The notes: generated by a model not told the origin, from the letters alone. 58,441 bases of DNA, filler included, from Sphacelaria rigidula (GCA_964200075.2; 8 parts of 8 records of this genome joined end to end with filler, not necessarily neighbours in it), one strand, 5' to 3'; shown: positions 6,410 to 58,441, counted from the whole stretch's first letter. Program-made: numbers and translations.

Positions 6410-7074
6410 TTCCTTGTTTGGTCTTGACTTTCCGCTTTCCACCTCTTGTCGTAGGACTCAAGTTGCACCTTTTCCTCTCTTGTTGTATCGGATGTGGCGT
6501 GCACGCAGGAAGACCACTTGTAGTGAGACACAACCTGTTCTTGTGCTGTAGCTTTTGGTGCTGCATGTAGTCATACACTACTGCAGCCGTTGTCGGTCCT
6601 GTGTTTGACTACACGCAGCACGTTGCTGCTCATCATAGGGTCTGGTTAACACGCGACTTTAATACATATGTAGACTATGCACTTCGTCTCTACTGCGGGG
6701 ATCGCATCTGTCTGAGACTTTTTTTCTCAGTTCTTCCCTTGCATCTGGTATCCTTTGCCCTACTGCTCTTTGCGCCAACACATTTCCAATAACGCTCACC
6801 ACCTTCTTATCTACCTCTTCTTTTCGGACACCATCGCCGCATATCTGCCACCACCATCTCTCCTCATAATATCCGACCGGGTACATATCATTTTTCATTT
6901 TCCTTTTATTAGCATAGACTACATTCCTCTTCTCCCTACACTACACCGGACGATTCAAGGGGTGGAGAGGGGAGCGGGGGGACACTGAGAGAACAGCACG
7001 CCGCCTGCCACGAGCGTGCCTTTCCAATATATATTACTGTAGAAAATAGTCGAGGAGAACCCCTGACCGTTTTT

Positions 7075-7137
7075 TCATCTGTTGCTTGCCTCAGCCATTT
7101 GACTATTGACCACACATCCCTTTCGAGGCGGAGCACG
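7075..7137 (-). mobile_element. Short 3'-end fragment of LINE family A
   Basis: Reverse complement reads GTGCTCCGCCTCGAAAGGGATGTGTGGTCAATAGTCAAATGGCTGAGGCAAGCAACAGATG. It is directly preceded on its own strand by a C run (G run at 7137-7147 on +). Confidence 0.75.
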
Positions 7138-7218
7138 GGGGGGGGGGTAGAGGCGTAAGGGGGATATGTAATACTGACCGAGGCCAGCTCTCCCGGGAGG
7201 CTGAGCCATTCCTGCCCC

Positions 7219-14636: not shown

Positions 14637-14757
14637 CTGTTACATATCTTATCCCCGTCCTGTTTTGCCGTCTCTGGCCACCATTTATCTCCTGGTATAG
14701 CCATCGTTTTCTGCCTACTGTCCAATGCATCAAACGATTCCATGCCACCTTTTACAT
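14637..14757 (-). mobile_element. Fragment of LINE family A (cut by contig start)
   Basis: Translates GGMESFDALDSRQKTMAIPGDKWWPETAKQDGDKIC, matching 48690-48800. Confidence 0.8.
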
Positions 14758-21300: not shown

Positions 21301-22651
21301 ACCCATGCCTCCCCCCAGTGTCGGACTGCCAGCTGGGTTTTTATTCTCTGCAAACTCACGTAGATGGCGAGAGGTCATCTGTTGAATCGGCATCAATTTC
21401 ACTTGAAAGAAGTCTACATTATTCAGATGGGCTATCCGCCTCGCGGTCTAATGGTTTGAATAATATTTTTGCAACTGTGGGAATGATACCCGTAAAATCA
21501 TCACGTGGACTCTATACATACATTACTCTGGCTGCAAAAAAAGGTAGTTGGAACACTTTCGATCGCCAGCAGCGTACCGTAGGTCGTCTGAGTTGTATAT
21601 TCATTTTTTCAAGTAAAAATGTTTTCTGTTCAAGAGTTGAACAGATGGGAAGTCGAAGGGTTTGGTCCCTGTCAGCAGGATGGTAGTTTTGGAACAACAG
21701 TAAATCCGGCTGACGGTCCCCCCGGAAAATCCGGGAAAATGGGATGCGTTTGTGTGTGTATGGGGGAGGGGGGGGGGGGGGGGAGGGAAGGGTACTTGTT
21801 GTTGCTGTTGTTGCTGTCTTCACGTTAACCCTCATGATACTGGCAATGAAAAAGNNNNNNNNNNNNNNNNNNNNNNNNNNNNNNNNNNNNNNNNNNNNTT
21901 AATTAATTAANNNNNNNNNNNNNNNNNNNNNNNNNNNNNNNNNNNNNNNNNNNNGATCGCCCTCGACTACCGCCAGGTGCGGGATAAACACCTTTCTACG
22001 GTCGCCCCCCCCCCCCCCCCCAAATAAATCCAGCCCAAAAGTGCCACGAAAGAAATGGTCATACAGCGCCTGATGTTTGGGTTCAGGCTGCATGAAGCGC
22101 CTCATGTGGGCGACATCGGCGAGAACGAACCTAACCTGAGCATGGGAATCCCCAGCTGCTCGTTGTGCTCGGCTTTTCCCATTTCGATTCACGTGAAGAT
22201 TTTGCCTCCCCGAACCAGGCATTTTTGGGGGGCGGGGGCTATCGTAGAAAGTGTCGATATTGCAATAGACAATAGGTTTCATATTCTGCGCATTACATTT
22301 TTTTTTACAATGAAACATTTTGTCCAGGGTGTGGGTGACTACACAGATTATGCTGTTTATACAAAGTAGTCACTTTGGAGGCCGATAGTCGATTTGACCC
22401 GTCACTCTGAGTTTACCTCGTCCTGTACCCATTTCCTTTGTGGATGCTGATTTTCGTTGCTTTTCTATTATGGCACCCCTCTGAGTTTGTAGGGATTGGT
22501 CATGGCTTGCTTGCCTGCAACGTACTTTTTTTTGCTTTCAAGAAATATGTACTGTACCGAAAAGTACTCCATATATGTATATATGTATACATATACAAAT
22601 CATGTGAGAGTGTGAAGATTTTCACGCGAAACTTGACTTGCCATACTGAAC

Positions 22652-23178: not shown

Positions 23179-24591
23179 GCTAATTGCTGCTCCTGCTCCT
23201 GCTGCTATTGCTGCTATTGCTGCTGCTGTCGTCGCACCTTTAACTGATTCCCAGGAGTCATGATCCAGCCGTAGTCATTATCCACATGGTAGACGCTTCC
23301 GAGGCAAAACAAAACGGAAACACTCGCTGCAGAAAAGCGAAGCAATACAGAAAGAAGGCAGATAGAACGACTAACAACAAGTGCAAGGTTTCTGTGTAGA
23401 ATCAGTTAGACAGAGGTAGTTAGGTATCAGGTTGCCCAGATAAAATGATGTTTCTCCTGCAGTTTCAGACGGTAACCGAATAGTGTTGGTATCACTTCTC
23501 CAAAACACACACTCACACAGCGTTAAATATTGATGTGGTAGTCGTGACGTCGACATGCATTCACTCATTTTCGGAAAACAGGAAGGACCAGAGATGAGAG
23601 AGACCCTCCGAGAAGAGCGCACGTTGTGGGTCACCGATCAGATCGCCCAGGACAAGTTTCCCGAGGAGCTGGACGCGTTTTACCTGCTGAAGAACCCGCC
23701 CGCAGAGGAGAAGCCGGCGGCGGACGAGGACGCCGCTGGAAAGAAGGGAAAGGTTTGTTGCTGTGCTCGTGTCTATGTTGTTCGTGTTGTCTTGTGCTTG
23801 TGTTCCGATTTGGTTTGATTCATTCTCCGATTGTAGTGATCGACGGACTTGATGGACTCGACTGATTTGTCGCACATGAAACTAATCACCCGGGGATCCA
23901 GTCGTGATCATTATCCATATGATAGACGACGTATTACCCGAGAAAAAACGAACCGGAAACACCTGTTGAAGAAAATTGGAGAAGGTAGAACGGCAGAAAC
24001 AGAGAAGCAGAGTAGACTAAGAGAAAAAAGGGGGGGGGGGGGAAATGAGAAAAAAGAACAAAACAAAACAAAAAACAAAGAAAAAACTACTCGATATGGC
24101 CGGCCTCTGCAACATGGCTTCGGTGGAACAGGTCTCGCACAAAAGCGCACACTCATGCCTGATTGGAAAAATTAAAAGCCGCGGAAAGAGATTGCGGCTC
24201 ATGTACTGTATTTTTATCTCACTTCTGTGGGTACAAAGCTTTCATCCATGGATCCTACGGAAGCGAGGCACTAAACTGCTACTTGCATACACCGAGGGGA
24301 AAAAACTTACATAGCGAGAGACAGAGAGAGACAGAGAGACGGGGAAAGAGATGGGCAAACAGCGAAGGAGACTACAGAAGTATTGAAACCCAAGGATACA
24401 GTGCAGTAGACCAGGTACGAAAACAGCACCAGGGAGCACCGCAGAACCATCGACCAAGGACACATTCAACAGCAGATATAAAAGACGAGGAGTATCGGTT
24501 TCCGTGTGAGCCCAGCTTCTAGCATTCATCCCCAGTCGGGTATAAAGCGAGCCGTTTCCTCGGTCATTTCTGTCTTGGATCCCTCGCGAGC

Positions 24592-28867: not shown

Positions 28868-29034
28868 GTGAAGTTCCATGCGCTGTACTGTAGTAATGCT
28901 GCTTCTGCTTCTGCTTCTGCTGCTGCTGCTTTCTCGTGGTATGGTTCCATAAGCTAAAATACCACTACTGCTGTTGCTTTCGTTGTCTCTTGTTGTACAT
29001 GTATTGTAACCCTCATCCCCCCCCCCACTCATCG

Positions 29035-29100
29035 GTGCTCCGTCTCGAAAGGGATGCGTGGTCAATGGTCAAACGACGAAGGCAAGCAACAAATGAGTAC
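29035..29100 (+). mobile_element. 3'-terminal fragment of LINE family A
   Basis: GTGCTCCGTCTCGAAAGGGATGCGTGGTCAATGGTCAAACGACGAAGGCAAGCAACAAATGAGTAC, with a C run at 29017-29027 upstream and C-rich sequence downstream. Confidence 0.85.
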
Positions 29101-29477
29101 GCACACCACCTACTCCCCCCACCAAACCATACATCAATAAACAAATATAAAAAATGTTACCACGTATCTATTNNNNNNNNNNNNNNNNNNNNNNNNNNNN
29201 NNNNNNNNNNNNNNNNTTAATTAATTAANNNNNNNNNNNNNNNNNNNNNNNNNNNNNNNNNNNNNNNNNNNNACCCAGTAAACTGGCTGCGGAGAGCAGC
29301 CAGTTTACCTGGTACTGGCGCGTAGCGCCAGTCCCCAACCCTATAGATTTACTCACACATATTTTCATTTTCAAGATTTTTTAGGCGGTCCGAGAGCGCC
29401 AGTCGCGACCGGGCCTCTTCCTTTCGAGTCTTGCAGCTGTTTTTACCCTTTTCCTGTCGACACCGAAATACCAAAAG

Positions 29478-35267: not shown

Positions 35268-36108
35268 GTCAGCTTGTTGCTACAGTGGGTGGAGATAGAT
35301 GAGGTGTCCCTACAATAAGTATGTATCACTCAGGAGCACCAGTTTTGTAAGCAGAAGACGTTAGTTGTGGGACCGTCTCTGATGAAAGTATGGTCATCCA
35401 TATAGTTTTCGGCACACATCAATACTTGATATAGGTGACTTCTATGGGTTCACCCACCATGTGGTGATGGTAAGAGGTGCACTTGGGCGTCATTGCCATT
35501 ATGCGATGGTGGGTGAGATGTGTGCAGGTTAGCTCGTGGTGACGAGGATGTGGAGGAAGGGCAAGTCCATTTGTGGGGGTGTTTGTCTCGTGTGTGTTCC
35601 ATACTGGAGTACGTGCACGTTTATTACGCTTTGGTCTTGTCGAGTTTGCGGAGTGCAGCTACTCGAAACCCACCACAATTAGTGTGGTGGCACCAAGTTT
35701 GTTGAACATCACGAGTTCGAGGTGCTAGTTTGTTTCTGGGAGAGAAGTGGTCCGAGTGTCGTGAACCTGTCGAACAGCCACGCTGCGAGATGTGAATTTA
35801 TTCGTGCTGACGGTATACGAGAGTAGACGATTGAACCCTCCCCCCCTGGTTGGCCTGGTCCGGCGAAAGCTCGGCATGCTCCGTCCCGGCTTTGTAGAGG
35901 CGGACCCCTCTATGGAGTTGGCGTCGGTTTGCGACGACGCTGTAAAACACGCCACTCACTGCGTAAGCTAGGCAACCAGGTAACCAATCTTGCGTGAGCT
36001 TGCGTTTATTTTGTGGTAGCCGTGATGGTAGTCGATCTAGATCATTTGTGCGGGGTAGTAGAACCTCAACTCCGCGCACAGGATATGCTCGTGCTACGTT
36101 GTATCTAA

Positions 36109-36410
36109 ATGGTGAGATACCCGTGAGGCAGTGTGTACCCCGTGGCTGTTTCTGAAAGTGCCGACACCAAAAAAGAAGCAACCCATTGTAGGCTGCCATC
36201 CAAGTGCAAGCTAACCAGTACGCTCCGGGCGAAACAATCGTAGCAGGATGCAGCTCACCCTTCATGCGACTCGCCGAGCACACCACAGCGCTCCGCGCTT
36301 GGTGATTGATAGCGAGCCTGGGTCGGCGAAAACCCGGCGTGCTCCGTCCCGGCTTTGTAGGAATGCGAGGTCAATGACTCTATGGCTGTGGCATGCATGA
36401 TCATGAGTAC
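36109..36410 (+). mobile_element. Full-length SINE-like family B (302 bp), followed by a C run and a LINE-A 3' fragment (36427-36490)
   Basis: ATGGTGAGATACCC...GCTCACCCTTCATGCGACTCGCCGA...GTGCTCCGTCCCGGCTTTGTAGGAATGCGAGGTCAATG...CATGAGTAC. Colinear with 40327-40630, 48958-49261 and 49718-49930. Confidence 0.85.
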
Positions 36411-37380
36411 CCTCCCCCCCCCCCTGGCTCCGTCTCGAAAGGGATGCGTGGTCAATGGTCAAATGACTAAGGCAAGCAACAAATGAGTACNNNNNNNNNN
36501 NNNNNNNNNNNNNNNNNNNNNNNNNNNNNNNNNNTTAATTAATTAANNNNNNNNNNNNNNNNNNNNNNNNNNNNNNNNNNNNNNNNNNNNGTAGTACTGT
36601 ACTACTGTTGTCTGTAGTACAAGTGTGCATATGCCTATGTGTGTCCGTTTGCATACTTTGAGAAATTACAGTAGTTCTCGATAAAGATTCACCACACGCA
36701 GTAATCCTAGCTGCGTGAAGGCGAGAGGGGGAACAGAAAGACCCGTCGACCGGGCTAAAGATGACGTGGAAGGGCTGAAGTGGGCCACCCACAGCCTTTA
36801 CGGGGATCTCGACAAAATGGCCACCCAACGGTGGTGTAAGTGCGCGAGCTAACGCAAGCTTCACGTTGGGTTGCCATTTCGTCAAGTCCACATAGTAGCT
36901 GCTTGAGCGGCCGACTTCCGCCCTTTCGCATCAGCATAAGTCAGGTCGATTGGTGTCTCGGCTCCCGCGTTCGCTTCCAAGTGTTCCTCGTAGTTTTGGG
37001 TCACCCTTGTGAACGAGCTGCCATCATCAGTGCTGTCGCGGGCGTTCACGGCATCCGCCACTGCGTCACTTATGATATTTGTCCTACGGCTGTGTTCTGT
37101 AACCTTGGTCGTTATGGAGCAGGGTATCTAGTTCCGTTTCATAGCCCTGAGTTTGGCACCCTTTGGGGTGTCTAGCAACTCAGTTTTTTTTCTATTGAAA
37201 ACTTACCCTGGGTTGTTGCGCATGTCTCTTCTCACGGTTCAGTTTTCGGGGTTTACCTAGGGGAATTCGTCATATCCTAGCCTTGAATCCCAACTTTCTT
37301 AATAATCTCTGAGTTTTTCCTTATCCCTGAGTTCTGATTTGTGTTTCCGAAACTCTCTAATATCGAAATACTCATATATT

Positions 37381-37787
37381 TTACAAGAAGTTGCACAAGG
37401 ATGTACGTTATCACCCAGTTTGTTCAAGGTATTTATTAATGACTTGATAATAGCAATAGAAGCAGCAAAGCAAGAAGTCAAGGCAGATGGAGAAATGATA
37501 TAAGAATTGATATTCGCGAGTGATATTGTGGGGATTTCAGGAACAGCAGAAGGATTGCAGACACAGATAGACAAGGCATTAGAATACACTAGGGAATGGA
37601 GAGTGACGGCGAACGTTAACACATGCGCGGTACTCCTCTATAAAGAAGATAAGAAAAATCCGGTAGAGTTCACATGGAAGTGGGGAGAAGGGGAAGTGCC
37701 GATCGTAGACCAGTATACATACCTTGGTGTAGAAATCTCAAGACACTGTTCTTGGGATGCACACATTAATAGAGTAATAGAGAAAAA
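37381..37787 (+). mobile_element. Degenerate reverse-transcriptase core fragment of LINE family A
   Basis: Translates VAQGCTLSPSLFKVFINDL...*ELIFASDIV...EWRVTANVNTC...WKWGEGEVPIVDQYTYLGVEIS..CSWDAH. The end matches 47787-47866. Confidence 0.88.
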
Positions 37788-38049
37788 ATGTGTATTTTCG
37801 CGAGGTGGGTTCAGCCCCATTTGAGAATTCGACCCCATTTTGCAGGATCCTCTGTTGGAAGACAAGAGGATTAAAAGACCACAAAGCGAGGATAAAATCA
37901 ACAACCCCAGGAACCCCCATAGACAAATACCAGAGCTGTTCGGAAAACGGCAGATGCACTAGCGAGTGTACTACGCGACGGTCTTCTGGTTACGGTTCGG
38001 GGGTCCTCGATAGGCACTGAGGGGACTCTCGCGGTAACACAGCGAACAA

Positions 38050-40010
38050 ATTCTTAGCATAGCGTGCGTTGGTCCAGGCTATCATGTACATCTTAGCCCC
38101 TTCCTCTACGATTCGGTACCATTTGAAAACACCTTGGGTAACCTGCGTCCACGATGTCGTGTTTATTCTGAAGTTAGGGCAGGATTCCGTGACACAGTGT
38201 TGTCGGCGTCTTGCTGGTCGGCCTGTCTTCGTCTTCACTCCGACCATTACTCCACGCATGACGATGTTGGGAAGGCGCAATCATGCATGCGCACGACTCG
38301 GCCGGCGTGTAGGAGGATTAGCCCCATTATGGTAGCCTCGAAGCACTCGCGGCCAGTTCTTTCGAGGACCTCGTGGTATGACAGCATGTGGTGGTCGGGA
38401 GCGCTGCGGCTTGAGGTATGTTTGTTGAGGCACCTCCGTAGGAATCTCCGGTGGACCTCCCGTGAAACGACGAAACTGTCGTGCGATCGTCCAGGTCACG
38501 CAGTGGTATAACATCATTATCTCGACCACTTCAGCCTTCAGCAGACGATTGTTGGCAATGTGCGCGTTGTCGTATACCGCTCTGCTTTACTTATAGAAGC
38601 ACGTCCAGGCCTGGTCAATACGGCTACGGATCTCACGAGTGGCGTCGCTGATGCTGCTGACTTTGGCCGCCGAGGTAGACAAAAGAATCAACTTGCTCGT
38701 ACCTTTGGCCCGCCGACTTCACCTCAATCACACCCGCCTTCATGTTTGGGGAGCGCATATACACGGCGGTTGTCTTTTTTTCCGCCACGCGAGGCCGGAT
38801 GCCGGACAGGCTTCGACGTCGGTCGTCATCATCATCTTTTCCAGGCTTTGATAAGATCGCGAGGTGAAGCCCGCGTCACTGGCGAATAGCATGGCCCAGA
38901 GCATTTTGCGAAGTTCGTCCATGGTCTTCCCGCCCCTTTCAGCGATGCGACTGAAGTCCTTCGACGCCGCGTTGTTGTTCGAGAAATGGTCGAACGTCGC
39001 CGTCAACACCCGCCATGAAGAAGATGCTGAACAAACCGGGGGAAAGCACACAGCGGAGGCTCTGGTTGACGTTTAACCACTCAAACGTCTCGCCGCCGTC
39101 AAGGCGTACGCATGACCGTGTGCCGTCGTGGAACTGGCGGATGATGGAAATCATCTTTGCGGGGATACCGTAATCGTGCTGGGACCTCCCAGAGAAGAGC
39201 GCGGTTCACCGAGTCGTGCGCATTTTGGAGGTCGATGAAGCATTCCCACAGTGGAATATTTTTCTTTCTGGCCAGTTCGTATAGTCTACGCACAACGAAC
39301 ATCGTGTCGACTGTCGAGCGGCCGGGTCGGAAGCCGTATCGAGCTTTTGGGGGGATCCCCTTCAACTCGCAGTAGGCGCTGAGGCGAGTCGCAACTATCT
39401 CGAAAACCACCTTGCCCGCGTGGGACCCTGGCGGAATATCACGGTAGTGGCCGCATTCGTGCGGGTCTTGATTCTTGAAAAGCACCTTGATGGTGGTGTC
39501 TTTCAACTCTTGTGGCACTACTTCGTGACGCCACACGGTGAGCAGTTGCAGGATAGCTTGCTTGTCCCGCAACAACTCGCCAGTCGCGCTCCTAACGTAG
39601 GTTGAGCCTCACGCCTTTTCCTCTTTCAGTTCCAAGAACTTGTTGTGTTGGTACAGCCCAGGTTGGTCCTTCTCGCGAGGAAACTCTGTTCTCTGGGCGG
39701 TCAGCTCGTGAATGAAGTTCTGCAAACCAGCGTCCTTCACCCGCTTGGACGCTTTGTCCATAACCTTCAGTGCCTTTTTCAGGTCAGGGCCCTCCGGATT
39801 GGCGCGTAGTCTCTCCTATACACGTTCCCTGATATTCCACGCCTTTTGGAGGCGATCCTGAGCCTGTGGCGACTCACTGAAACCTCTAGATGGGGGGTCC
39901 TTCAGGCAGCGAGGGAGGGTAGCCGCGGCTGTCGGTCGCAGGGCGTTGGGGAAAGTAGATATCATGTCGTTCACGTCCAGAAGTGCTGTAGAGTTGGTGG
40001 CATTCACGAG
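38050..40010 (-). mobile_element. Degenerate RTE-clade LINE (linker, RT and C-terminus) with frameshifts and an internal deletion
   Basis: VPQELKDTTIKVLFK..D..ECGHYRDI, YGFRPGRSTVDTMFVVRRLYELARKK.IPL..CFIDL..A.DSVNR, MISIIRQFHDG, CVLSPGLFSIFF, MLFASDAG and RLPNIVM are RTE/BovB-type RT motifs. Confidence 0.92.
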
Positions 40011-40326
40011 GGGAGTCGATGATGTTCTAGCAGATAGACTCTCATGATAGCCCGAAGGTCAGTATTATAAGTAGACAACCTCATCGACGCATGCGATATG
40101 CAATGCTGTGACATCGGCAGGCGAGGAAGATCAATGCTAACAACACTCGTACTGTCGGAAGGAAAAGGATACTCCCAAAAGGAGAAGAAGAGAGAAGACT
40201 AGATGATAAGATGTGTTCGATCGTGTCCAGATGCGAAGGCTGAAAAAAACGCCGAGGCCCCCCTCCTCCCCTGCCACTCCACTTTCGCGCACAAGCCCGA
40301 AGGGAAGGTTGCACAGTGGCGGGGGT

Positions 40327-40630
40327 GTACTCATGATCTTGCATGACGTAGCATAAGACCATTGCCCTCGCATCTCTTCAAGCCCAGGACGGAGCGGCTG
40401 GGTTTTCGCTGGACCAGACTCGCAATCAATCACCAGGCGCGAAGCGTCATGATATGTTCGGCGAGTCGCATGAAGGGTGAGCTGTGCCCTGCTAGGATTG
40501 TTGGGCCCGAAGCGTACTGATTATCTTGCATATGGATGACAGCCTCCAATGAGTTGCTTCACTTTCTGGTATCGCCACTTCCAGAGACAGCCACAGGTTA
40601 CAATACACTGCCTCGTGGGTGTCTCACCAT
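40327..40630 (-). mobile_element. Full-length SINE-like family B
   Basis: Same 5' end (ATGGTGAGACACCC) and 3' end (CATGAGTAC plus CCCCC) as 36109-36410. Confidence 0.85.
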
Positions 40631-42399
40631 ATGAACACTGCGTAGTAGCGTGACCCTCCCCTTTTCGCAGATTTGAGGTTCTCCATCCCGCAAAACATGA
40701 TCTAACTGGACTACCACCATCGTCACCGCGAGAAAAAGTCAAGCGAGAAAAACCCGGTAATCCGGTTGCCTAGCGTGCGCAGTGAGTGGCATGTTTTTAC
40801 AGCGTCGTTGCCAACCGACGCCAACCCTCAAAAAGGAAACGGGAAAAATGAGCTCGTTCGATCACCAGCGCTTGCGTTCACTCGCAACAACAGCACGCGG
40901 AAGACATATATTACGTGGTTCGGTGTGCAGGCCGGGAAGGCACCCTGAACAGGATGCTAGCCCCAGCGTGGGTGGCAGCAAGACAGAATAGGGTGTATTA
41001 GACAATCTGGGGTCGGGCGAGAGATGGAAGATGACAAGATGAGAAGGAGACACACGTTCTTCCGCAGGAGAACGGAGAGAACGCCGCCGTATCCGTATGG
41101 ACGGACAAGTAGAGGAATGGAACGAAAAGTCGAAGCACCTGGAGTAACAAAAGGATGTATGCGTCAACTGTATGGAGAGAAAGGCGAGCCAGCATGCCTG
41201 GCACTCGGGTAGGAAAGGAGGACCCATAGAGCCAGCAGCGACAAAGGGAAACCTCCTCCCAGCCCCGGCGAGCCGCGGACTGAAGTCCCAGGCATCAATG
41301 ATGCACTTTACAATAGGAGACAAAGGGACAAATTTGGTGCCCCAACCAAGCACCAGCCCGACAGCAGAGAAGTTCAAGCACAGGTTCTCAGCCCCTATTT
41401 CGGTCACACTAGCAAGAGCTTTGTCACCCGCACGAGGTATCTTTTTTCACTCCGCATACCAAGAAGGTCTACACGAGTGTTTGATCTCTCATACATGCAT
41501 CCCCTCCTCTGGGATGTGGCAGAATGTTGTCCTTGTTTTGCAGACGTCGGGTGAAATCAAGGACGTCAATAGCACCCCCCAGCTTCCGATTATTAGATCG
41601 TGCCGCAAGGGCGCAGCCGTTCTTGCTCGCATGTGTGTGTGAGAGAAAAATAGCGGTGACGGGAACACCAACCTGATTTTCGACGACGAGTTTTACTGCG
41701 CACAGGGGCATTTCCTGTCCAAGCAGAGAGAAGAGGAATCGATATTTGCATTGGTCAATGTCACAGGCAGGAGACGACAACCGGGGCATCCCGAGATCTT
41801 GTTTCCGTGGCTGTGCTACATTTACCCGCCTGCCCACACATGGCAACCTGGGTATGTGCTGGTATGATAACATGATGCCAACCTCTGCAGCGATTGGGAA
41901 TTACCGGACGAGGGTATGCAAAGGACACCGGCGAGGAGCTTCCTCTCCGCCGTTGCTCCTCTCTATGGTGATCTCGTCATCGACACGCGTATGCACGGCA
42001 TTCATTTGGTGCATCTAACCACACCGGTCCGATGTGACTGCGACAGAAACTCTGCTTACGAGAAGAATGCTTTCCTATGGTGATACTGTTTGGCGCAAAT
42101 TCTCGATTTTTCGAACTCGTGTTGAACCCCATTTTAGTGCCCAACCCCAAATTTATAATCAGCAGTTCTCCGCTGTTCAAATCCCATATGCCAGTATATG
42201 GGATTTGTACAGCAGAGGTTGCGAGAACTAGTTGAAGTCGACTAGGAACAAAATTCGGTGGACCCATCGGATCTAAATTTTGTGTTCCACCAGGGTCGGT
42301 TTACCAGACTTTTTCGATCGATGAAAAATGTGCGAAGATATGTCCTGAAGCAAAGCGAAAAAAAACAAAAGGATAGAGAAATGAAGCTCTCAAAAGAGT

Positions 42400-43055: not shown

Positions 43056-43143
43056 CTAACCCTAACCCTAGCCCTAACCCTAACCATAGGGATGTTCACA
43101 TTCCGATGCGGTTCTCTAAGCACGCAATCCTCTCACGCATACA
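43056..43143 (+). mobile_element. Right half of the telomere-repeat MITE (second copy)
   Basis: CTAACCCTAACCCTAGCCCTAACCCTAACC followed by ATTCCGATGCGGTTCTCTAAGCACGCAATCCTCTCACGCAT, matching 4350-4431. Confidence 0.75.
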
Positions 43144-43807: not shown

Positions 43808-44712
43808 NNNNNNNNNNNNNNNNNNNNNNNNNNNNNNNNNNNNNNNNNNNNTTAATTAATTAANNNNNNNNNNNNNNNNNNNNNNNNNNNNNNNNNNNNN
43901 NNNNNNNCACGAATCAACTTATTATACTAAAACCAAGTAATTTCCTGACGAATCATTATTTGTTTTAACCGTGAAACAATCACACTGGCATCGGTTTCAT
44001 GTCTCACATGTGGTGACACAGTGGCACTGCTTTCGCTTTTTCTTTATCCTTTTTTCTATCCCCCCCCGCGCGCGCCCACGGTTTTTCTTTGCCGCATCAA
44101 AGCATGGACAACATCTTATCCCTTTTTTTTCGGTTCCCATTAAACAAACTATTGCGTTGTCGTCGTTGTTGCTGCTGCTGCTTCTCACCAAACCCCACCC
44201 TTTCCGTATTCCGTTATAAAGGATAGAGATCATATTGTAAGGGATACGCACAAGAGCATCTTTCTCCCCCGGTACACGCCTCCTTACATTTTCGTCTCTC
44301 GCGGATTGGATCATGACCAACACTCCGGCACCGCGTTTACTCTCGTCGAGCACAACTTCCTCGCTGCTGACGTCCTCTCAGCAGAAGAAATGTATCTATA
44401 TATATCTAGATATAGATATTTCGGATTCCGTACCCGCGTTTTCCCGCCCCAACCGGTTTCAGTTGTACCCTTTTGATCTAGACCCCTGGGGCGCGGTTTA
44501 GGTGGGGAAAGAAAAAAGAAGAGCTGGATCATGATCCAAGTCAACGTCTCTTTCATAGAGGAGGGTGTTGAGGAAGTCCTGGCATGGTTTTGGGAGATTG
44601 TGAAGAAGTCTTACATTTGTTTTGTGTATTCCCTTCCCTTTCCCCTTCCCCTTTCATGTTCTTGTATTTTCTTCGCGGCGGATGGTTAAATGCAAAACAA
44701 AACAAAATGAAG

Positions 44713-47700
44713 AACGGGAGCGCGGATCCGCCTGGGTCTCAGTCGAACGGTTCCTCTGTAAGGGCGTCGGGAGCCGGCTCTTCGTCTCAGGACCCGTCCA
44801 CGATGCACTTCAGTCAGACGCAGAACCAGACAGTGCAGGAGGATATGGCTGAGGCACTCAAGGTGCACTGCGCGTTTGCTGCTGTTGCTGTTGTTGTTGT
44901 GTGATTTGATCTGTGTTGTTGCTCTCTCGTGAGAGGCGCCACGATGCGTACGATAGATATAATAGTGCGTTTGTGAAAACGAATCAAGCTGTTTTTGATA
45001 TATGGATATTTATATATAGACAGAGAGAGATGCATGTGGCTTGCCGTGTTCTTCATTCCACCTATATATTTTGCCATTTAAAGATGTTTTGGACTTTCCT
45101 TAGCGTGTATAGGATTATGTAAGAGCACAGCAGTAAGGGGAAAACCTGTTATTCCTTATATACATATATATTCCTAGCTCTTGGTTGTTCCTTTCCTTTC
45201 CTTTTTCTGCTTAGTTTTTTATTTCTCAGTTTGTTCCGTTTGCTCTTTCTATCTTGTTTTCCCCCACTTTAGTTCTTGTCTGGCGAGCGTTTCGTCTATA
45301 TTGTGGATGATGGCGGATCAGCTCATGTGCGACCATCAATCAATCAATCAATTGTTGTACAAAGGAGGCGAATGAAGAACCCCGACTAGCTCACCTGCCC
45401 ATCACTGTGTGTGTGTGTGTATTGTTTACCCCACGTCTATCGGGATAAACCTTGAACCTGCGTTGTGGACGAAGTCGTGCAGCTGCTGCTGACATTTTGC
45501 TCTCCCTCTGTCGAGAAGGGGGGGGGGGGGCTTTCATCAGAACACGAGCAACAAAAAGACATGACTAGAATAATCTCGCTCGCCGTTGACGGTTTCTGTG
45601 TGACCGTCGACGTGCACCTTTTTTTTTTCCCCTCGACGCTGTTGTGTTGTTACTTTTGTAGGTGGATCTGTCCAAACTAAAGAAACACAGGGGAGCTAAA
45701 GATCCTCAAGAATTGGAGGAGATACGCGCTGGATACACCACGCGCATTCAAAACCTTCAAAAGGAAATCGACCTCATGCAGCCCAACATGAAGGTACGGT
45801 AACGGTACGGTAACGGCAGTATCATCACGCATGAATGTTTTGGGCAATCGATTAGCTTTTTCGTCCTCACGTGCTTGTCTTTTTTTCCCACACAAAGCTC
45901 ACTTTGCTGCACACAACTCAGCCGACACAGCATGATACGGCACAAAAATAATGCACCCGAGAAGTTATATCACTTCAACCCCTTCCCCCCCCCTGCTAGA
46001 GGGGGAAATGCGGGACATGAACGAAGGTGGCATGGATTCGTTTGACGCATTAGACAGTAGGGAGAAAACGACGGTTATACTAGGAGATGGATGGTGGCCG
46101 CAGACGGCGAAACAGGACGGGCTAAAGATATTTCGACGATTTTTGTGTAATACATGAAAGAAACGTAATGAGCGCCGGGATGTTGGAGTTGTCTCTATTA
46201 GGAGTAGGAACGGTGCTCCGTCTCGAAGGGGATGCGTGGTCAATGGTCAAACGACTAAAGCAAGCAACGAATGAGTACCCTCCCCCCCCCCTCTCCATAA
46301 ACGGGAAGAATAGAGCTAGTCGAACAAGTAGGTAAACGCGACCTAGATATAGCAGGAATCCACGAGTCACGGGGGAAAGAGGGGGCGGAAGTAGGATGCA
46401 AAGTCGGAGAGTACATATGGATGAAGAAAAAGCGGAAGGAAAAAAACCCCAAGAGCGGGGGAGCGGGGGGAGTAGGATTCTTAATCAAGTAATACCTGTG
46501 TGACAGTGTAGAAGTGATCGACGTCACGAAAGTCGAGGAGAGCATATGGATAAGGGTACAAGGGGAGCGGGGAACGACGGACTTCTTCGTAGGAAACATC
46601 TACATGCCCCCAGAATCGAAGAGTAGGGTGAACGATATCCACCGTAGGTTTGGAGAGATAGCAGAAGATGTCCGCATGTATAAAAGGCAAGAAGAAGTAA
46701 TGTCAGTGGGAGATTTTAACGCAAGGGTAGGTAGGAAGAGCAGGTCAACCGGATGATATCATTGGGCAATACGGGGAAGATAAGAAGAACACGAACAGGG
46801 TGAAAATGCTGGAGTTCCTTGAGCACAACGAGATGAAGACGCTGAACGATAGAGTGCAAAATCGAGATAGAACGTGCCGTTCTTGACTGTATAGTGGTGA
46901 AGCATGGAATTAGTAAAGAAATGGAAGTACATGTATGCGCGGAGGATGTGGGAACTACAGATCATCGCCTCGTATGGACAGAACGCCAACATACGAGAGC
47001 TACGAGCAAAAGAAATAGGCGGGGTAGAAAGTTGTAGAAATGGAGAATCGATGAACTAGACGTGGAAAAAAACGGTAAGAGTTCCAAGAAGAGATGGCCA
47101 AGAATGCAGTGAAATTTTCCGAGCTGTTGGAACGCACAGGAACAGTTGATACCAAAATGGAAAGAAATCGGGCAGGAGCGAAGATCATAGAGGGATGGGA
47201 GCAGTTAGTCAAGAACACAGCGAGTAAAGTCATGAGGAAGAAGCTGATCGTATGCAACGGAGCAGAAAAATGGCGGGATAAGGAAGTAAAAGAGGCTGTG
47301 AGAGAAAGGAGAGAGGCCCACGCAAGATGCATATCGAGTAAGACTACGGCAGGATGTGAGGAGTATACTGGAGCTCGCGAGGAGGTAAAAAAGATGGTAC
47401 AGAAGAAAAAGAAGGGAGTGTGAGAAGATGTAGTGAATGAAACAAATGTGGGTAGGAATCAAAGGGATAACGGGAAACCAGGCAAGAAAGATGGACAAGG
47501 GCATAGCTGCACTCCGGGCGTAGCACGGTAAAATGGACAGTAGTTCGAAGGGGAAGATAAAAGTGCTAGTCGAGCACTACCGTAAACTAGGAACACCAAA
47601 AACAACCACGGAGTTCGACATGGAATTCGAAAATTGAATCAACGCGTGGGCAGCGGCAAATAGAGACGTCAAAACGGGAGGATGGTGGCTCGAAAGAATT

Positions 47701-50700
47701 GGAGAGCGTTTACCAGAGATGAAGTAAAGGAGTGCGTAGCTAAACTCAAGAACAGAAAGGCAGTAAGGGCAGACGGAATTGTGAATGGGAGGGGAACTGC
47801 CGATTGTAGACCAGTATACACACCTCGGCGTGGAGATATCAAAACTCTGTTCTTGGGATGCTCACATGAATTAATAGAAAAGGGTAAGGCACAGATAGGC
47901 AAGATGGACGTGGTCCTCAGAGACTCGCACCTGGACACTAGGATTAAGAGATGTATCCTGATGAACGTGATTGTAACAAAGCTGTGGTGCGCAGGAGAAG
48001 TATGGGAGGGGAACGCGAAGTTGGTGAAGAAGTCGGAAACAGTACAGATGGCAGCAGCTAAGAAAATACTTGGATGCTCGGAAACGACGAGTAATACAGT
48101 TTTGAGAGCAGAGTTGGGAATGTACTCACTTCAAACAAACGGAGATATTTGAAAGTTGCAATGACAATATAGCGTGAAGAACATGCAGAGAAAGAGATTG
48201 CCAGCTATAGTTGATAAGGCTTCATGGAAGAAAATTACGCAAGGCAAGGCTAGAATAAGGTTAAAAAGGTCGAGAGAGTATGGAAAGAGATGGGAGGAAA
48301 CCAAGACGAAATTATGTCCATAGGTGAAGGCGCGGTGTACAAGACAAGGGGAAAAGATATGATAGAAAGAAGGGGGGGGAAAGCGCTTAGACGCAGAGTA
48401 GACGACGAAGAACACCTGAAGATATACAGGGGGTTGAGAAAGGGGTAGGGGTGAAAACATATTCGCATGGCCCAATGGATGCGGCAAGAAAATTAAAACT
48501 GCGATTTCGGGTGGGGGACCTGGACCTGCCGGGAAAAAGGAAGAGGTATACCGGTAGTCGAAAGGAGGAAGTAGATGGACAGAATTGCCCCTGTGGCAAA
48601 GCGAAAGATATTGTAACTCATATTGTGGCAGAATGTGAGCTATACAAGGAGGAACGGGACATGCTAGAGGGGAAAATGCGGGACATAAACGAAGATGGCA
48701 TGAAATCGTTTGACGCATTACACATTAGGGAGAAAACGATGGCTGTACTGGGAGATAGACGGTGGCCACAGACGGCAAAACAGGACGGGGATAATATATG
48801 TAGAAGGTTTTATGTAATGTATGGAAAAAACGAAATGAGCGCCGGAATGTTGGAGGTGTCTTTATCAGGAGCAGGAACGGTGCTCCGTCTCGAAAGGGAT
48901 GCGTGGTCAATGGTCAAACGACTAAGGCAGGCAACAAATGAGCACGCCCCCCTCCCCAGGCACCCATGAGGTGATGTATTCCATACAGTACTTGTCTCCG
49001 AAAGTGGCGATGCCAGGAAAAATAAAAAGCAACTCTCTCGAGGCTGTTATCCATGTGCAAGATAATAAGTACGCTTCGGGCCGAACAATCTTGGCGGGAT
49101 GCAGCTCACCCTTCATGCGACTCGCCGAACACATAACGACGCTTCGCACGTGGTGATTAGTCGTGAGCCTGGTCCGGCAGATTCCCGGCGTGCTCCGTCC
49201 TGGCGTTACAGGGATGCGAGGTGAATGGTCTCACGATTACGGCATTCAAGATCATGAGTACACCCCCCCCCCCCCTCCCCAACCAACCCACATGTTCATG
49301 TCAGGCGGCGGAAAGATTTGGAGACGTGAACGACAGGCTCAAGGCATCCGGGCAGACGTTCGAGCAGTCCAAGCAGAACGCAGCGGGTGCCACCCATAAG
49401 TTCAACGAGGCCAAGCAGAGAAGGTTACCCCCCCCTCCGCGCGTGCGCCCGCTTTGCTGTCATTTTTTCCCTTCAGTTTTCTTGTTGCATCTGTGAAAAA
49501 CGTTCCCCTTCGCTCTTGTCCTTATTTCCTTCGTCTAACATTGACATCCCTCCGCCCGCCCCCCGCCGCCCCCTGTCCTCTTCCTATTCCTCGGGACAAG
49601 CCATATTTCCTCCGTCACTTACCTTGTCTGGTCGATTGGTTGGTTTGATTGATTGCATGAATGATCGCAAGAACCTCCCCCTCCCCCTCGAAAATAAAAT
49701 AAAAAATACATACTTCGTATGCAAGATAATCAGTACGCATCGGGCCGAACAATCTTAGCAGGATGTAGCTCAACCCTTCATGCCACTCGCCGGACACATC
49801 ACGGCGCTTCGTGCGGAGTGATTGATTGCGAGCCTGGTCCGGCGAAAACCCGGTGTGCTCCGTCCCGGCTTTTGTATGGATGCGAGGTCCATGGCCTTTA
49901 TATGACTACGGCATGCAAGATCTTGAGTACACTCCCCCCGCCTCCCCCCCCCCCAAAATAAATAAATGAAAGAGTAAATAATCGGGGAGAAGAACGGCGG
50001 CTGAAGGAAACGCGGGGAAAGGGAAAAACGTGCCCCTCACTATTGTGCTATCAACCATCGGATTCTATCATCGCCGCACAGGACCCCCCAACCAATCCAC
50101 TGGTATATTTCCCGCTCTATTGCCTGTCCCTGTTGTGATGATCATCAAAATGACAGGTATGACACGTTCATGCAGGCGTACGGCCACGTCTCCTCCAACC
50201 TCGACAAAATCTACAAGGTGAAGGAGGTGTAGGTATAGTGAAGATACATCAACCGTCGTATCGAGTTCATCCAAGTATATTCTTATTCATTCACATGGTG
50301 TTTGGTGACGATACCGTAGCGATCAAGTGTAACAGTGTAGTTGTGCGATGCACGGGACTGTGCATTTTGGAAGCACGGTAAAAGAATATTTTCAGTGCCT
50401 GTCTGTCTGCCTGTCTGTCTCCTGTTTTCAAATATCAAAAGAGGAAAATTCATTCCGTGAAGAAAACAGCTCGTCAACATTCCGCTCCACGAACTTGAGC
50501 ACATGCCGTAACCTGTGTTTCGTGACGCGCGTTCTCCCCTCTCTTTTCCCACATGTAGATATGTCTCGAAGTCGCCGATAAATCGCATGTTACGGGACTC
50601 GCTGAGCATAACGCCAACTCGTACGCAGGCGAAACGTGGCCAAACTTGATCACTGACCTGACTGTTGTCGTTTTTATTCTTCTTTGTTCTTCCTATTTCC

Positions 50701-50973
50701 TTTCCCCCCCGTCCCCGCCTAACACACACGCATACACACCTCGCCGCTGCCTCTATTTCTGCCGTGATACACGAAAAAACAGGACCTGACGAAGAGCAGC
50801 AAGCACCCTCTCGGGGGAACCGCGTTCCTGAGCCTGGATGACCAAGAGGAGCCTTACCTGGGAGGTTTGAAGTACAACGCCATGCCCCCCATGAAGCGCT
50901 TTCGTGACATGGAGCAGTTGTCGGGCGGAGAGAAGACGGTCGCGGCGCTGGCGCTCCTGTTTGCAATCCACAG
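44713..50973 (+). CDS. SMC1: Structural maintenance of chromosomes 1 (cohesin), near-C-terminal fragment; exons 44713-44862, 45662-45793, 49305-49423, 50157-50217, 50783-50973
   Basis: GT-AG exons with compatible phases give ...VDLSKLKK...EIDLMQPNMK-AAERFGDVNDRLK...KFNEAKQRR-YDTFMQAYGHVSSNLDKIYK-DLTKSSKHPLGGTAFLSLDDQEEPYLGGLKYNAMPPMKRFRDMEQLSGGEKTVAALALLFAIH. This contains the ABC signature LSGGEK in the SMC1-specific context PPxKRFRDMEQ. Confidence 0.95.
45995..46278 (+). mobile_element. 5'-truncated LINE family A copy in an SMC1 intron
   Basis: Translates LEGEMRDMNEGGMDSFDALDSREKT..ILGDGWWPQTAKQDG and ends ATGAGTAC. C runs flank both sides. Confidence 0.88.
46300..48945 (+). mobile_element. 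RTEX-like LINE family A: APE endonuclease, RT with core deleted, C-terminal CCHC; degenerate, in an SMC1 intron
   Basis: APE motifs DIAGIHE, GGVG, GNIYMPP, GDFNARVG and TDH are present. The RT start KLKNRKAVRADGIVN is fused directly to the IVDQYTHLG region. These are followed by RLPAIV and CPCG-x-HIVAEC. The copy has multiple stops and frameshifts. Confidence 0.92.
48958..49261 (+). mobile_element. SINE-like family B immediately downstream of LINE A
   Basis: Colinear with 36109-36410 and ends CATGAGTAC plus a C run. Confidence 0.85.
49718..49930 (+). mobile_element. 5'-truncated SINE-like family B in an SMC1 intron
   Basis: TATGCAAGATAATCAGTACGC...CTTGAGTAC followed by a C-rich tract. Confidence 0.85.
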
Positions 50974-53149
50974 GTCAGAGAGAGACAGAAAGAGGGAAGA
51001 AAAAAACAGACAATGAGTCATATGCTGCAATGAGGGGGGGGGGGGGGGGATTACCCGAAAAAAAGACCCGGTATTTGCCACAACAGCCCAAAAACCCTCG
51101 CGGTGGGCTATTTTTAGTAAAAAANNNNNNNNNNNNNNNNNNNNNNNNNNNNNNNNNNNNNNNNNNNNTTAATTAATTAANNNNNNNNNNNNNNNNNNNN
51201 NNNNNNNNNNNNNNNNNNNNNNNNCTATTGCAGAAAGCATGTTGGGCCTCGTGTAAGTGCATTTCGGAACTGAAACGATTAATTCACTGATTGACCGCTT
51301 TTCACTCTCAATCCTATCATCTACTCTCCATCTCACGAAAACACTGTTACTCGCGGTGCGCTTGTATTTGGGTAAAAGCAGTGTAAAGCAGCATGGAAAA
51401 CTTTGCCCAACGGACTGGGGTCCGAAAAATCAATCCACGGCAGAAACTCGGCTGTAGACGGGCTGAAATCCCCATATTTCTACACGTCAAAATTCGTTGC
51501 CATAAAAGTGGGTCTATAACCAATCATATTTCTTTTGTTGTACTGCAGGGCAGGATGCTGTAAACGTAGGCGGCGATAAGTTATTTGCTTCAAACTACCG
51601 GGAATCGTGAAATCGTTTTTTTTAGGCACTTCTTCAGGGCTATTTCTTGAAGAACAAAAATATGTTGATAGTTGATAGTTGATGGTTGTGTTGCTGCGGC
51701 ATGGACAACATGATATTAGCTGGGTGTTCAAGTGTTATCCTGTCATGAGAGTGTGCATTGCGTAATGACAACAGTTCACACCCGCCGCAGCCCATGCGCA
51801 GGGACACAGTGCATCCGGGCAGATAACGACATTTGGATGCTCTGAGTACTCTACACGGCCGTATACCGCAAGTAGGGAAACTTGTGAAATCACACCATCA
51901 TCGCACTACAAGTACCTACCGTTGTCTGCTGTCTGCTGTGCGGACTGTACACTATGTACAGCGGGCAACAGACGACAGCAGTACAGAAGTACTACTGTAC
52001 AGGGCCTATAGTGCTCTGAACAGTTGACACAAGTGATGCGATACAGGACCACTCCCGCTACTCGTGCTGCCACTTGGATAGCCTGCACAGTACAGAGACA
52101 CAGTGTACAGAGAGCGTGGTCTCTTGTACAACAGCAGTGCAACAACAACAGTATGATGTGGCGGTATTATCGATGGCAAGCAGTTGATGCATACTGTATG
52201 CAGTTCGTCTTGTCAGAGCATCCATACAACCAAGCATGCGCGGTGCTTGGCTGACCAAGAACACAAGACGATTGTGTGCTCATCAGTATCGAGCAGAGAG
52301 TTTATCGCCGCAGGCGTGCGGTCTTCTGCCCTACGACAAGATGCTTTCTTACAATATGATGAATTTCCCGTGTGTGTTATATTACGTATATATTTTCCTC
52401 CATCTACAGGCAGTCAGTCATGGCTCATATGTCAGAGCCGTGTCCATGTTGTCTACGCTGTGTTTCATCAGAAAGGTTGACATCACTGTTTGCGCTTCCG
52501 ATTTTTTTGCGGCAGGATCCTGACACGAAACATGCGCCGACAAAACGGGCAAGATCACCCTCTGCGACACAGCAGGCACGGAGCTATCGGTGTTGATGCG
52601 TGGTGTTGGNNNNNNNNNNTGTTGGCCGCAGTGCGCTCTCGCACGCAAGATCAACATATCGCCGGCCGTAATCTAATCAAGGCTGTACTAACTTCAACTC
52701 ACTTCGAAGAACACGTGCTCAAAACTGCAATGTAACGGAGACAAGCATGGCATATCAACATGTACGGGCTGATATTCCATTCGGACGACGAAAGCACGGT
52801 TGGTCATAAACATCACAGAGTAAGACCATGCTGCGCGCCGCTCACCCCGACTAATGGTACGCAGCCGATCGTCTCTACCCATAACCCCACCCCCACCTCC
52901 GATCAACGATCTTTTCCTCCTTTTCCTTCCACTCCAGGCCGTCGGTAGGGTGCGCTCCGTTTCCAGGTACTCGTCAGTCATCTCCACTTTGGGCCGCTGC
53001 TATTGCGAGCATCCTGCTCTTCCCTTTGTTCTTGGGTTTGATGGTGGTATCCTCGCCTCGAAGCTTCCGCTGCAATAGAGCAACACTCCCCCCACATCGG
53101 CAGACTACAAGTTGTCTGCTGTCTGCTGTGCGGTATTGGTATGTACACT

Positions 53150-53236: not shown

Positions 53237-54014
53237 CACAGAAGGTCCGTGTTCAGGTTCTGATCCTAGAAAACACTGCAGAACTACTGTGTTGTTTTGT
53301 GTTGAGTGTAGTACTCTGTACTCCTTACACCACTGCAAAATTGTCTTGTCTTGAGTGTACTGCCCTGTACTCGAGATAATGGGGTCATTGTTCGAGCAGT
53401 TTTTCGAAACGTTCTGCTCGTTTTTTTAGACGTTCTGCTCGTTTTTTTCAAGTATTCCGAAAAAAACGAGAGTGTTTTCTGTCACAGAAACCCTATGCCG
53501 AATCTGGAATAGCCTGAGACAACAACCAACTTGAAAATTGGAATACCTAGTACGGTCATCCTCATTGTGCGGAGTTGAGGTTCTCCCACGCCACGCCGCA
53601 CAATATGATCTAGCTCGACTACCATCATGGTTACCGCAAAAAAAGAAAAACAAGCAAACACAATCAATCGGTAACCTGGTTGCCTGACTTTTTGTATACA
53701 TAATATCGTCAAGTGTTTCCCGCGCATGACCTTACCCCTTGCGCGCTGTACTCGAAGATAGCCACCAGGAGAGCAAACCAACGAATTCTCACGTAATCTC
53801 GGCATACGTTTCCTAGCGTAATCGCATCGTCTCAAGCATGTGGGTTGCGAATTATTTTCGAATATTGAGCATCACCTGTTGTCGGTGAATGGAAACATCT
53901 CCCACGCTCTTCTCTCTCCATTCTGTCTATCGTGGATCAACACCATCAGCATTATTCGTACGAATGTGCAGATAGATGAGCCGCTTCATTTTTTTAACTT
54001 CGAATCATAAACGA

Positions 54015-57732: not shown

Positions 57733-57866
57733 GTCATTGTCTCCGTGACGGCTTTGGGATTAGTTTGGGGGTGTACTCATGATCATGCATGCGTACACCC
57801 CCAAACCAACCCCAAAGCCGTCACGGAGAAAATGACCGTGACGGCTTCGGGGTTGGTTTAGGGGGG
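57733..57866. repeat. Fold-back inverted repeat (44-bp arms) with a third direct copy
   Basis: 57733-57776 and 57793-57836 are complementary with 3 mismatches. CCGTGACGGCTT.GGG.TT.GTTT.GGGG recurs at 57836-57866. Confidence 0.85.
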
Positions 57867-58376
57867 AGCTATCGCGGCATCACTCATACACCGTGATCAA
57901 TCCGCTGTTCACCGTCATGTTTATTCACGTATCGCGGTGGGATCACTGCGAGAGCAATGCGCACGCAAAGGCAGATGCCCGATCATTGTGTGGCGCTTTT
58001 TGTCGAACGTTGTGGATTATGCCGAAAAAAGCAATCGGCCATTTCCCTACCGTCAAGAATGCCACCTTGAATGCCACGAAAGCCTTGGTTGTTGAACGAC
58101 GATGACCTCACACCGCTTCATGGGGCTGGTTTCACGAGCGAGGGGTGGTACCTTAAACCTCGTGTCGGAGCAGAACAAACGTACCATGCTGCCGGCTAAT
58201 GTAGCCAAAGTGGTTACGGGCAATGGGCACTGAAAGAAGTCGATTGCAGGCCATTTCGACACCTTCTGCGACCAATCTTGTGTCAATTTTCAACACGATC
58301 ACTTCGCGTCAGTCTTCCGGTTACTATACTCCGTCTCTTCTATCTCCGTTTCCGGTGAAACAGTGCATTTTGGGGT

Positions 58377-58441
58377 GTACTCATGATCATGCATGCCATA
58401 GTCATAAGACCATTGACCTCGCATCCCTACAAAGCCGGGAC
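58377..58441 (-). mobile_element. 3' end of SINE-like family B (cut by window end)
   Basis: Reverse complement reads GTCCCGGCTTTGTAGGGATGCGAGGTCAATGGTCTTATGACTATGGCATGCATGATCATGAGTAC-ACCCC. Confidence 0.85.

Follow-up and report, generated by a model that had tools for sequence, protein, structure and literature searches.

The closest described relatives of the retrotransposon family considered here, a long interspersed nuclear element (LINE) and a shorter dependent partner that recur in a 58,441-nt stretch of DNA from Sphacelaria rigidula (GCA_964200075.2; the whole stretch analysed is called the window below), are RTE-X elements of the brown alga Ectocarpus. In the Ectocarpus transposon library, RTEX-1_Ec32 carries the note 'single EN-RT ORF; (C)n 3'', that is, one open reading frame (ORF) for endonuclease and reverse transcriptase (RT), with a target-site duplication (TSD) given as 'C-rich' (PMC12477816, supplementary file 1), and RTEX-2_Ec32 is noted for '(C)n termini/TSD' (PMC12477816). 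The library also holds the non-autonomous RTEX-N1_Ec32 and RTEX-N2_Ec32 (N2 of 188 bp), partners that 'can be present in tandem'; the library entries give (C)n ends in RTE-X families only, with (CAA)n for RTE and (CA)n for CRE, and the 2025 paper presents the RTE-X families as the most abundant in the genome (PMC12477816). In its main text, 'C-rich' has 0 occurrences and these features stand as table notes only. The preliminary description of our window took the system to be undescribed, a view that must give way to the library, where (C)n 3' ends, C-rich TSDs and tandem copies are already recorded (PMC12477816). Our literature search found no retrotransposon with a 'poly C tail' and, for RTE-X in a brown alga, only the same Ectocarpus paper (PMC12477816); the 'C-rich' passages of a Blepharisma paper concern another element.

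Two better known groups frame the question of how such an element might choose its target. In L1 and Alu, the A tail pairs with a T-rich target at a TTTT/AA nick site, and repeat-specific LINEs with an apurinic/apyrimidinic endonuclease (APE) include Waldo (ACAY), Mino (AC), Kibi (TC), Koshi (TTC) and Dong (TAA), with no (C)n-targeting element named in that passage (PMC3812793). By these descriptions, the family in the window is like L1 and Alu in having a homopolymer tail, a weak target preference, a habit of landing in older tails and a short dependent partner; it is unlike them in that the tail is of C without polyadenylation, and so must stem from read-through or from the enzyme, and in that LINE and partner have in common a structured (by prediction) 3' domain of ~70 nt, as in pairs of the 'stringent' type. 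It is like the microsatellite-specific LINEs in sitting in a simple repeat and ending in the same repeat, whereas those, as far as described there, belong to R1 and related clades and occupy di- to tetranucleotide targets near-exclusively, and the repeat here is mononucleotide and its use non-exclusive. UnaL2 and UnaSINE1 of the eel are a stringent pair of a LINE and a short interspersed nuclear element (SINE), with a shared 3' stem-loop and a terminal repeat for priming. Here too, mobilisation of the partner would depend on a 3' domain in common with the LINE and on a short repeat at the terminus, with the differences that the repeat is a pentanucleotide in the eel pair and a C homopolymer here, and that the fold here is a predicted one.

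With the Ectocarpus RTE-X families, a different species and family compared by their descriptions rather than by consensus alignment, our elements have in common the single endonuclease-RT ORF, the (C)n 3' end and tandem copies, as well as a partner that carries the last 60 to 100 nt of the LINE and whose head, there said to have an unknown origin and to resemble the 5' end of the LINE weakly, is alike here; a C-rich TSD, as given for those families, is seen in one clear case here. By the same descriptions they differ in size: the LINE is ~4.85 kb as against 5.5-5.9 kb, and the partner ~505 nt as against 607 or 188 nt. Among named proteins, those closest to the LINE protein come from Ectocarpus (66% over the C-terminal 253 amino acids; 65% identity in the RT region, residues 640-1140). 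What we propose, at a probability of about 0.6, is that the C tail of these elements pairs with the nicked strand at C:G tracts in the way that L1 uses A/T.

A stack of LINE and partner copies joined by C runs

Counts given below cover the window, which is eukaryotic sequence with N masks about every 7.3 kb. Two further sources were used. Contigs of four sequencing runs (X1, X3, X4, X5) were aligned over 43908-50500, and LINE sequences from elsewhere were collected by a tail-pattern scan of public collections, one metagenome scan yielding three LINE 3' ends (marine contigs L006-L008) and one genome-contig scan yielding another (L011). Among viral contigs, the nucleotide scan gave chance matches only, five loci being unrelated beyond the 17-mer, and the protein scan gave no match.

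The stack at 45979-49280, all on the plus strand, was reproduced by self-comparison and by reading out its junctions in the order first reported: C run, LINE, C run, LINE, C run, partner, C run. It opens with a C-rich run (45979-45993) that has no remnant of a family tail upstream, followed by the last 285 nt of a LINE (45994-46278, ending in GAGTAC; 80.5% to L011 LINE positions 4867-5164). The next C-rich run (46279-46296) joins this fragment to a second LINE copy (46297-48946, ending in GAGCACG). Regarded in the preliminary description as a long copy, this second copy turned out to lack its 5' part up to about where the APE domain starts, to carry many stops and, by comparison with L011, to have lost ~836 nt of the RT core by internal deletion. 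A third run (48947-48957) forms the boundary with the partner (48958-49262), of which the 3' 305 nt of ~505 nt are present, ending in GAGTACA, and the last run (49263-49280), contained in the X1 contig 49254-49748, is the 3' edge. Stack members differ by 14% over their common 285 nt, and the three junction runs share the ending T(C/T)CCC, which fits repeated duplication of one tract. SMC1 residues 1086-1150 match an exon at ~50780-50975 (E 6e-29); the stack thus lies upstream of this exon on the sense strand of the SMC1 gene, most likely within an intron. This intron region also contains other very high-copy repeats, at 43908-44347 and 45228-45447, whose contig depth sums to as much as 369,000, as against ~71 for single-copy sequence in X1.

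Homopolymers are error-prone, and one LINE tail, at 7075, is short of its 3' end and its run, as might be expected if the arrangement were secondary, through post-insertion recombination or slippage at C runs, or an artefact of homopolymer joins in the assembly. We consider such an origin very improbable. The outer junctions of the stack are spanned, with 0 differences, by two independent Logan contigs of X1 (44307-46023 and 49254-49748), and X4 reaches the same junctions with 19 differences in 1,704 nt (~1% diverged); the runs, 9 to 18 nt long, are shorter than the 31-letter words used in contig building; and a like stack occurs in the unrelated contig L011 and in many contigs of the four runs.

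The LINE copies of the window are all decayed and 5'-truncated, and Pfam gave only sub-threshold endonuclease hints on their ORFs; an intact LINE is present in L011. Its single ORF of 1382 amino acids has Exo_endo_phos (E 8e-11) at 193-437 and RVT_1 (E 7e-32) at 763-1012, and on the element strand there is no further sense ORF of at least 150 amino acids and no separate ORF1. An N-terminal AP endonuclease followed by RT in a single ORF is the arrangement of RTE-X, and an RTE-X-type LINE with a non-autonomous partner is our candidate clade assignment. The ORF stops at a TGA inside the terminal AAATGAGTACG, five bases ahead of the C13 tail, and L006 has the same reading frame with the same ending. 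With the stop codon in the last bases of the element there is practically no 3' untranslated region, and the domain recognised by the RT would be coding sequence. The TGA lies within the terminal ATGAGTAC in L011 (113-118, minus strand), in L006 and in the window at 48930-48946, and the copies in the window have another frame open over their last ~130 nt as well.

What had been called 'SINE B' holds up as a dependent partner, but the unit recognised then is only the 3' 305 nt of the ~505-nt element: over 512 nt the copy at 35906-36410 runs collinear with that at 40827-40326 (76.6%). The ~200 nt upstream of the head first reported are themselves repeated, at 35906-36108, 40631-40827 (minus) and 53566-53685 (minus), the last copy being partial and without a partner after it, while the other two run on into the partner. 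No tRNA was found in the partner head, and Rfam gave no match at gathering score in the window and none at E <= 10 for 36090-36430 and 40300-40650, ranges that took in only part of the extra ~200 nt; as found, the partner is not a SINE in the strict sense of having a head derived from a Pol III gene. LINE and partner have in common the first ~8 nt, a 14-nt box (near the 5' end of the LINE, ~200 nt into the partner) and the last ~70 nt. In the predicted fold of this shared tail, GUGCUC pairs with the terminal GAGUAC and closes a domain with two hairpins, a prediction that is consistent between LINE and partner and statistically weak (z -0.7 to -1.9; two-sided changes in 2 of 17 pairs).

C runs at the 3' and 5' ends

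The 3' ends of both elements read (G/A)(A/G)G(T/C)AC, then one family-specific base, then a C-rich run of 4 to ~20 nt. At least four C follow 9 of the 10 ends in the window, the exception being the copy at 7075, and a C-rich run follows all four external LINE ends (L006, L007, L008, L011). No A run was found at any end, in agreement with the early report that poly(A) is absent and that GRGYAC-type ends are followed by C-rich sequence, and the element is not a LINE of the L1-like, poly(A) kind. Immediately ahead of the run, 7 of 8 LINE ends have a G and 6 of 7 partner ends an A, which argues that copying begins downstream of that base, within the C tract. After the C run there is often an A(A)CCAAC-like sequence (49281-49291, 57798-57812, 29121-29130; also in L007), which could be part of a longer C/A-rich tail, a co-transcribed flank of a master copy or a mark of nick-site preference.

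The 5' junctions were scored for a C run of at least 5 or at least 7 within 20 nt upstream, against random sites and with binomial P values. Runs of at least 5 precede 9 of 13 junctions as against 2.0% of random sites, and runs of at least 7 precede 6 of 13 as against 0.40% (P 7e-12); the observation that 5'-truncated copies begin by C runs is thereby borne out against a computed background. Four of the 13 junctions directly follow the tail of an upstream family member. Among the other nine, a run of at least 7 is present at four (7136, 29033, 35847, 45994; P about 3e-8), and no remnant of a tail could be detected upstream of these four runs. Since the LINE consensus lacks C runs where the copies are truncated, the 5' runs do not belong to the element. 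Run and element are in direct contact at 7136, 35847 and 45994, and a spacer of non-element sequence lies between run and 5' end at 29033 (6 nt), 617 (8 nt) and 49712 (~20 nt). Of the counter-examples first listed as without a 5' C run (14757, 36109, 40630), 36109 and 40630 are not 5' ends, since both copies extend ~200 nt further upstream; their true 5' flanks, at 35906 and 40827, are also without a C run as judged by eye.

The bias toward C runs, mostly older tails, is real, and the preference is not absolute. One might go further and imagine a strictly site-specific LINE, whose endonuclease has (C)n:(G)n as its sole target, much as the microsatellite-specific APE LINEs have theirs; the enrichment of 5'-flank C runs is at least 100-fold, and the Ectocarpus library gives C-rich TSDs for every RTE-X family in the entries at hand (PMC12477816). 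We think this unlikely, since a run of at least 5 is missing from the nearest 20 nt at 4 of the 13 junctions (from the nearest 40 nt at 3) and the full-length L011 LINE likewise has none, two 3' ends carry no more than 4 to 5 C, and the window has long free-standing runs, 13 to 17 nt in length, that are unoccupied. Nearly all copies of a site-specific, repeat-targeting LINE lie in the target repeat, and this is not the distribution found. An APE-RT with a (C)n preference, as first suggested, agrees with the copies found at C runs, and a strict preference fails at 14751, 35906, 40827 and the full-length LINE of L011.

The same flanks offer a different reading, in which no C run is required at the target: the RT adds untemplated G to the end of the cDNA, and the added G either pairs with the C tail of another element RNA, leading to a template jump and a stack, or is joined to the target, leaving a 5' C run. 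Stack and 5' run would then both arise in a single event. This would account for 5' runs at 6 of 7 solo truncated copies and 0 of 3 solo full-length copies, and it is the tie of 5' runs to truncated copies that mainly keeps the template-jump explanation alive. Truncation by C runs also happens repeatedly at two points on the border of the shared 3' domain (LINE position 48880, partner position 49831), as such jumps might favour. LINE position 48880 is the truncation point in three of seven window LINE copies; three of the seven (7136, 29033 and 36425) begin within 3 nt of the GUGCUC box. Contigs that join a C run to LINE position 48880 number at least 14, 2, 19 and 2 in X1, X3, X4 and X5, with at least 66 that join one to partner position 49831 in X1 among the five rows listed. 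The three solo copies with no bases between run and element (7136, 35847, 45994) fit as well. The spacers of 6, 8 and ~20 nt at 29033, 617 and 49712 do not; nor would the ending T(C/T)CCC common to the three main-stack runs be expected from untemplated addition, and the stack members stand 14% apart, although their ages cannot be dated from that figure. We judge a single-event origin improbable, though less so than strict site specificity, and the duplication described next adds to the case against it.

A duplication at a probable older tail and the proposed mechanism

TSDs were tested by alignment score against shuffles, in six tests without correction. The clear case surrounds a 5'-truncated partner copy at 49712-49931 (plus strand, ending in GAGTACA). 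Its upstream TSD copy of 30 nt (49674-49703; 0 of 2000 shuffles) consists of a C-rich run, three bases and an A-rich stretch, and opens exactly where an older tail meets its C run: a probable decayed partner tail that reaches 49673 and has its C-rich tail at 49674-49690 (49608-49690 in all, plus strand; score 14, empirical P 0.014). Downstream, nine C-rich bases of the element's own (49932-49940) are followed by the second TSD copy (49941-49966), and these nine bases between element end and TSD indicate that the copy brought its own C tail. Here, then, the C run probably pre-existed in the target as the tail of a probable older copy, and added bases cannot explain a run and spacer that are duplicated after the element. 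The idea that the C tract is the target is thus upheld as far as the bias toward C runs goes; that it is target only is contradicted by the family-specific last base and by the own-tail bases at 49932-49940.

We return to pairing of the C tail with the nicked strand as our preferred reading, for which the sequence of steps might be as follows. The RNAs of LINE and partner would end in a short C tail, copied from the genomic C run that follows each copy, and integration would proceed by target-primed reverse transcription. The first nick would fall by preference where a (C)n:(G)n tract has its 5' edge; the G run exposed at the nick would anneal to the C tail, and cDNA synthesis would begin within the tail. 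If the second nick fell at the end of the tract or up to ~20 nt past it, the C run, alone or extended by a few bases, would be the TSD. As a C run would be left on both sides and the commonest C runs would be older tails, later copies would land there and build head-to-tail stacks. We infer three components of this scheme, namely priming by annealing, an endonuclease preference and a tail borne by the RNA rather than added by the enzyme. The suggestion that an insertion regenerates its own target agrees with what is seen, as C runs are left on both sides of each insertion and older tails are re-used.

Several observations weigh against this reading. No 5' C run is present at 14751, 35906 or 40827 or at the full-length LINE of L011; all three full-length solo copies are without one, while 6 of 7 truncated solo copies have one within 40 nt, a contrast that the pairing model does not predict. 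The model presumes that the free-standing C runs predate the insertions beside them. The duplication of 49712-49931 is the single statistically clear TSD: the one at 29033 has P 0.15, none was found at 40827 (P 0.52), the search in L011 gave nothing usable, the flanks of the main stack compare C run with C run only (P 0.04, a weak point), and a candidate at 7136 (P 0.024, uncorrected for six tests) would put the C11 within the insert, as the single-event explanation would have it. C-rich TSDs, a trait of the Ectocarpus RTE-X, are thus seen in one clear case here, the other copies being decayed, masked or nested. Among the contigs, no joint that removes an element cleanly and no empty site was found in the 15 of 4164 joints listed (the listing also gave 24 of 12561 loose ends and 32 of 267296 contig pieces). 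In all, 13 5' junctions from a single window and four contigs from elsewhere make up the sample, and 19 of the 27 C/G runs of at least 7 nt in the window are unattached to any recognised copy, so the frequency of runs may have unrelated causes.

Other copies, abundance and meaning for brown-algal genomes

The 17-nt tail motif occurs 11 times in the window (up to 2 mismatches) as against 0.03 expected, and at 4 of 9 visible LINE 3' ends (94, 46278, 48946 and that of L011) another family member follows straight after the run. The further stacks reported at 1-620 and 36109-36490 are real, with limits at 1-617 and 35840-36490. In the first, on the minus strand, the 3' part of a LINE (524 nt, 94-617) is followed by a C tract (93-77) and, right after it, by a partner copy that begins at GGTGAGAC and is cut off by the window start (1-73). 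In the second, on the plus strand, C7 and a partner-like fragment that begins at the recurrent truncation point (35840-35905, seen also at contig joints) precede a full-length partner of ~505 nt (35906-36410), a C-rich run (36411-36424) and the last 66 nt of a LINE, which meets an N mask (36411-36490 in all). L011 is one more stack, since what follows its LINE on the 3' side is a partner's 5' end (score attained by 0 of 500 shuffles). That LINE has GTTGGGG at either side, a pair rejected as a C-free TSD because LINE and partner both start with this motif; similarity of the L008 flank to the partner head is non-significant (shuffle P 0.8).

On the minus strand, the last 62 nt of a LINE (7075-7136) have C11 on their 5' side (7137-7147) and lack GTAC and a C run at the 3' end; a C-rich tract lies ~90 nt downstream of this tail (6950-7074, minus), and a later insertion or rearrangement may have affected the 3' end. 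A LINE fragment at 14641-14751 (minus) has no 5' C run and is masked on its 3' side. At 29017-29120 (plus), C10 and 6 nt precede the last 69 nt of a LINE (29033-29101), followed by a C/A-rich tract. An isolated fragment of the LINE RT lies at 37342-37878 (plus), a full-length partner (40326-40827) with C5 after GAGTACA at 40321-40827 (minus), and a partner 3' end followed by only 4 C at 58376-58441 (minus). At 57733-57864 an inverted repeat has 49-nt arms (92% complementary, 6-nt spacer) plus a third arm of 29 nt; the arms consist of the last ~10 nt of the partner, C5 and the common 3' flank, a foldback of end plus flank. Elsewhere, part of another reverse transcriptase, with 29% identity to the RT of the LINE, lies at 39189-39536 (minus), and telomere-like AACCCT repeats (4345-4375 and 43058-43090) open an 83-nt repeat common to these two places.

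The family is clearly very abundant. Word depth summed over the elements, which is not copy number, is 0.2 to 5.7 million in the four runs as against ~71 on single-copy flanks in X1, and 177,208 contigs of X1 aligned on 43908-50500. Long C/G runs are also in excess: 27 of at least 7 nt were counted in the window as against 3.9 expected, 13 of at least 10 nt as against 0.05, and 7 of at least 13 nt, while A/T runs of at least 10 nt number 2 as against 0.2 expected. Eight of the 27 touch a recognised element end. The longest (13-17 nt; 21768, 22005, 24030, 34740, 45518, 51034) have no recognised element attached. A run at 21768-21783, which follows ...CAACAAGTAC on the minus strand, was considered as a family tail and set aside for insufficient score, and the free-standing G13 at 24030-24042 has GAGAAAAAA on both sides, like a short duplication around a bare homopolymer. 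We hold tentatively, as possible rather than probable, the idea of a family that is both producer and user of (C)n:(G)n tracts, its C tail serving as the handle for priming, with part of the stacking perhaps due to jumps of the RT between C-tailed RNAs on the border of the shared 3' domain. If it is true, each insertion, even one truncated to little more than its tail, seeds a new landing pad, and such a feedback would explain the excess of long C/G runs.

Little is understood of how LINEs that lack poly(A) acquire their 3' tails and put them to use, and a C-tailed clade offers a clean natural case; its C tail, C-rich duplications and self-renewing targets are suited to testing how a tail pairs with the nicked strand. 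The print record that we found consists of table notes for Ectocarpus, as far as that source was at hand, and a genome-wide description of such a family would be new. Present in introns of essential genes such as SMC1, the family probably shapes both the size of brown-algal genomes and their unusual content of C/G homopolymers.

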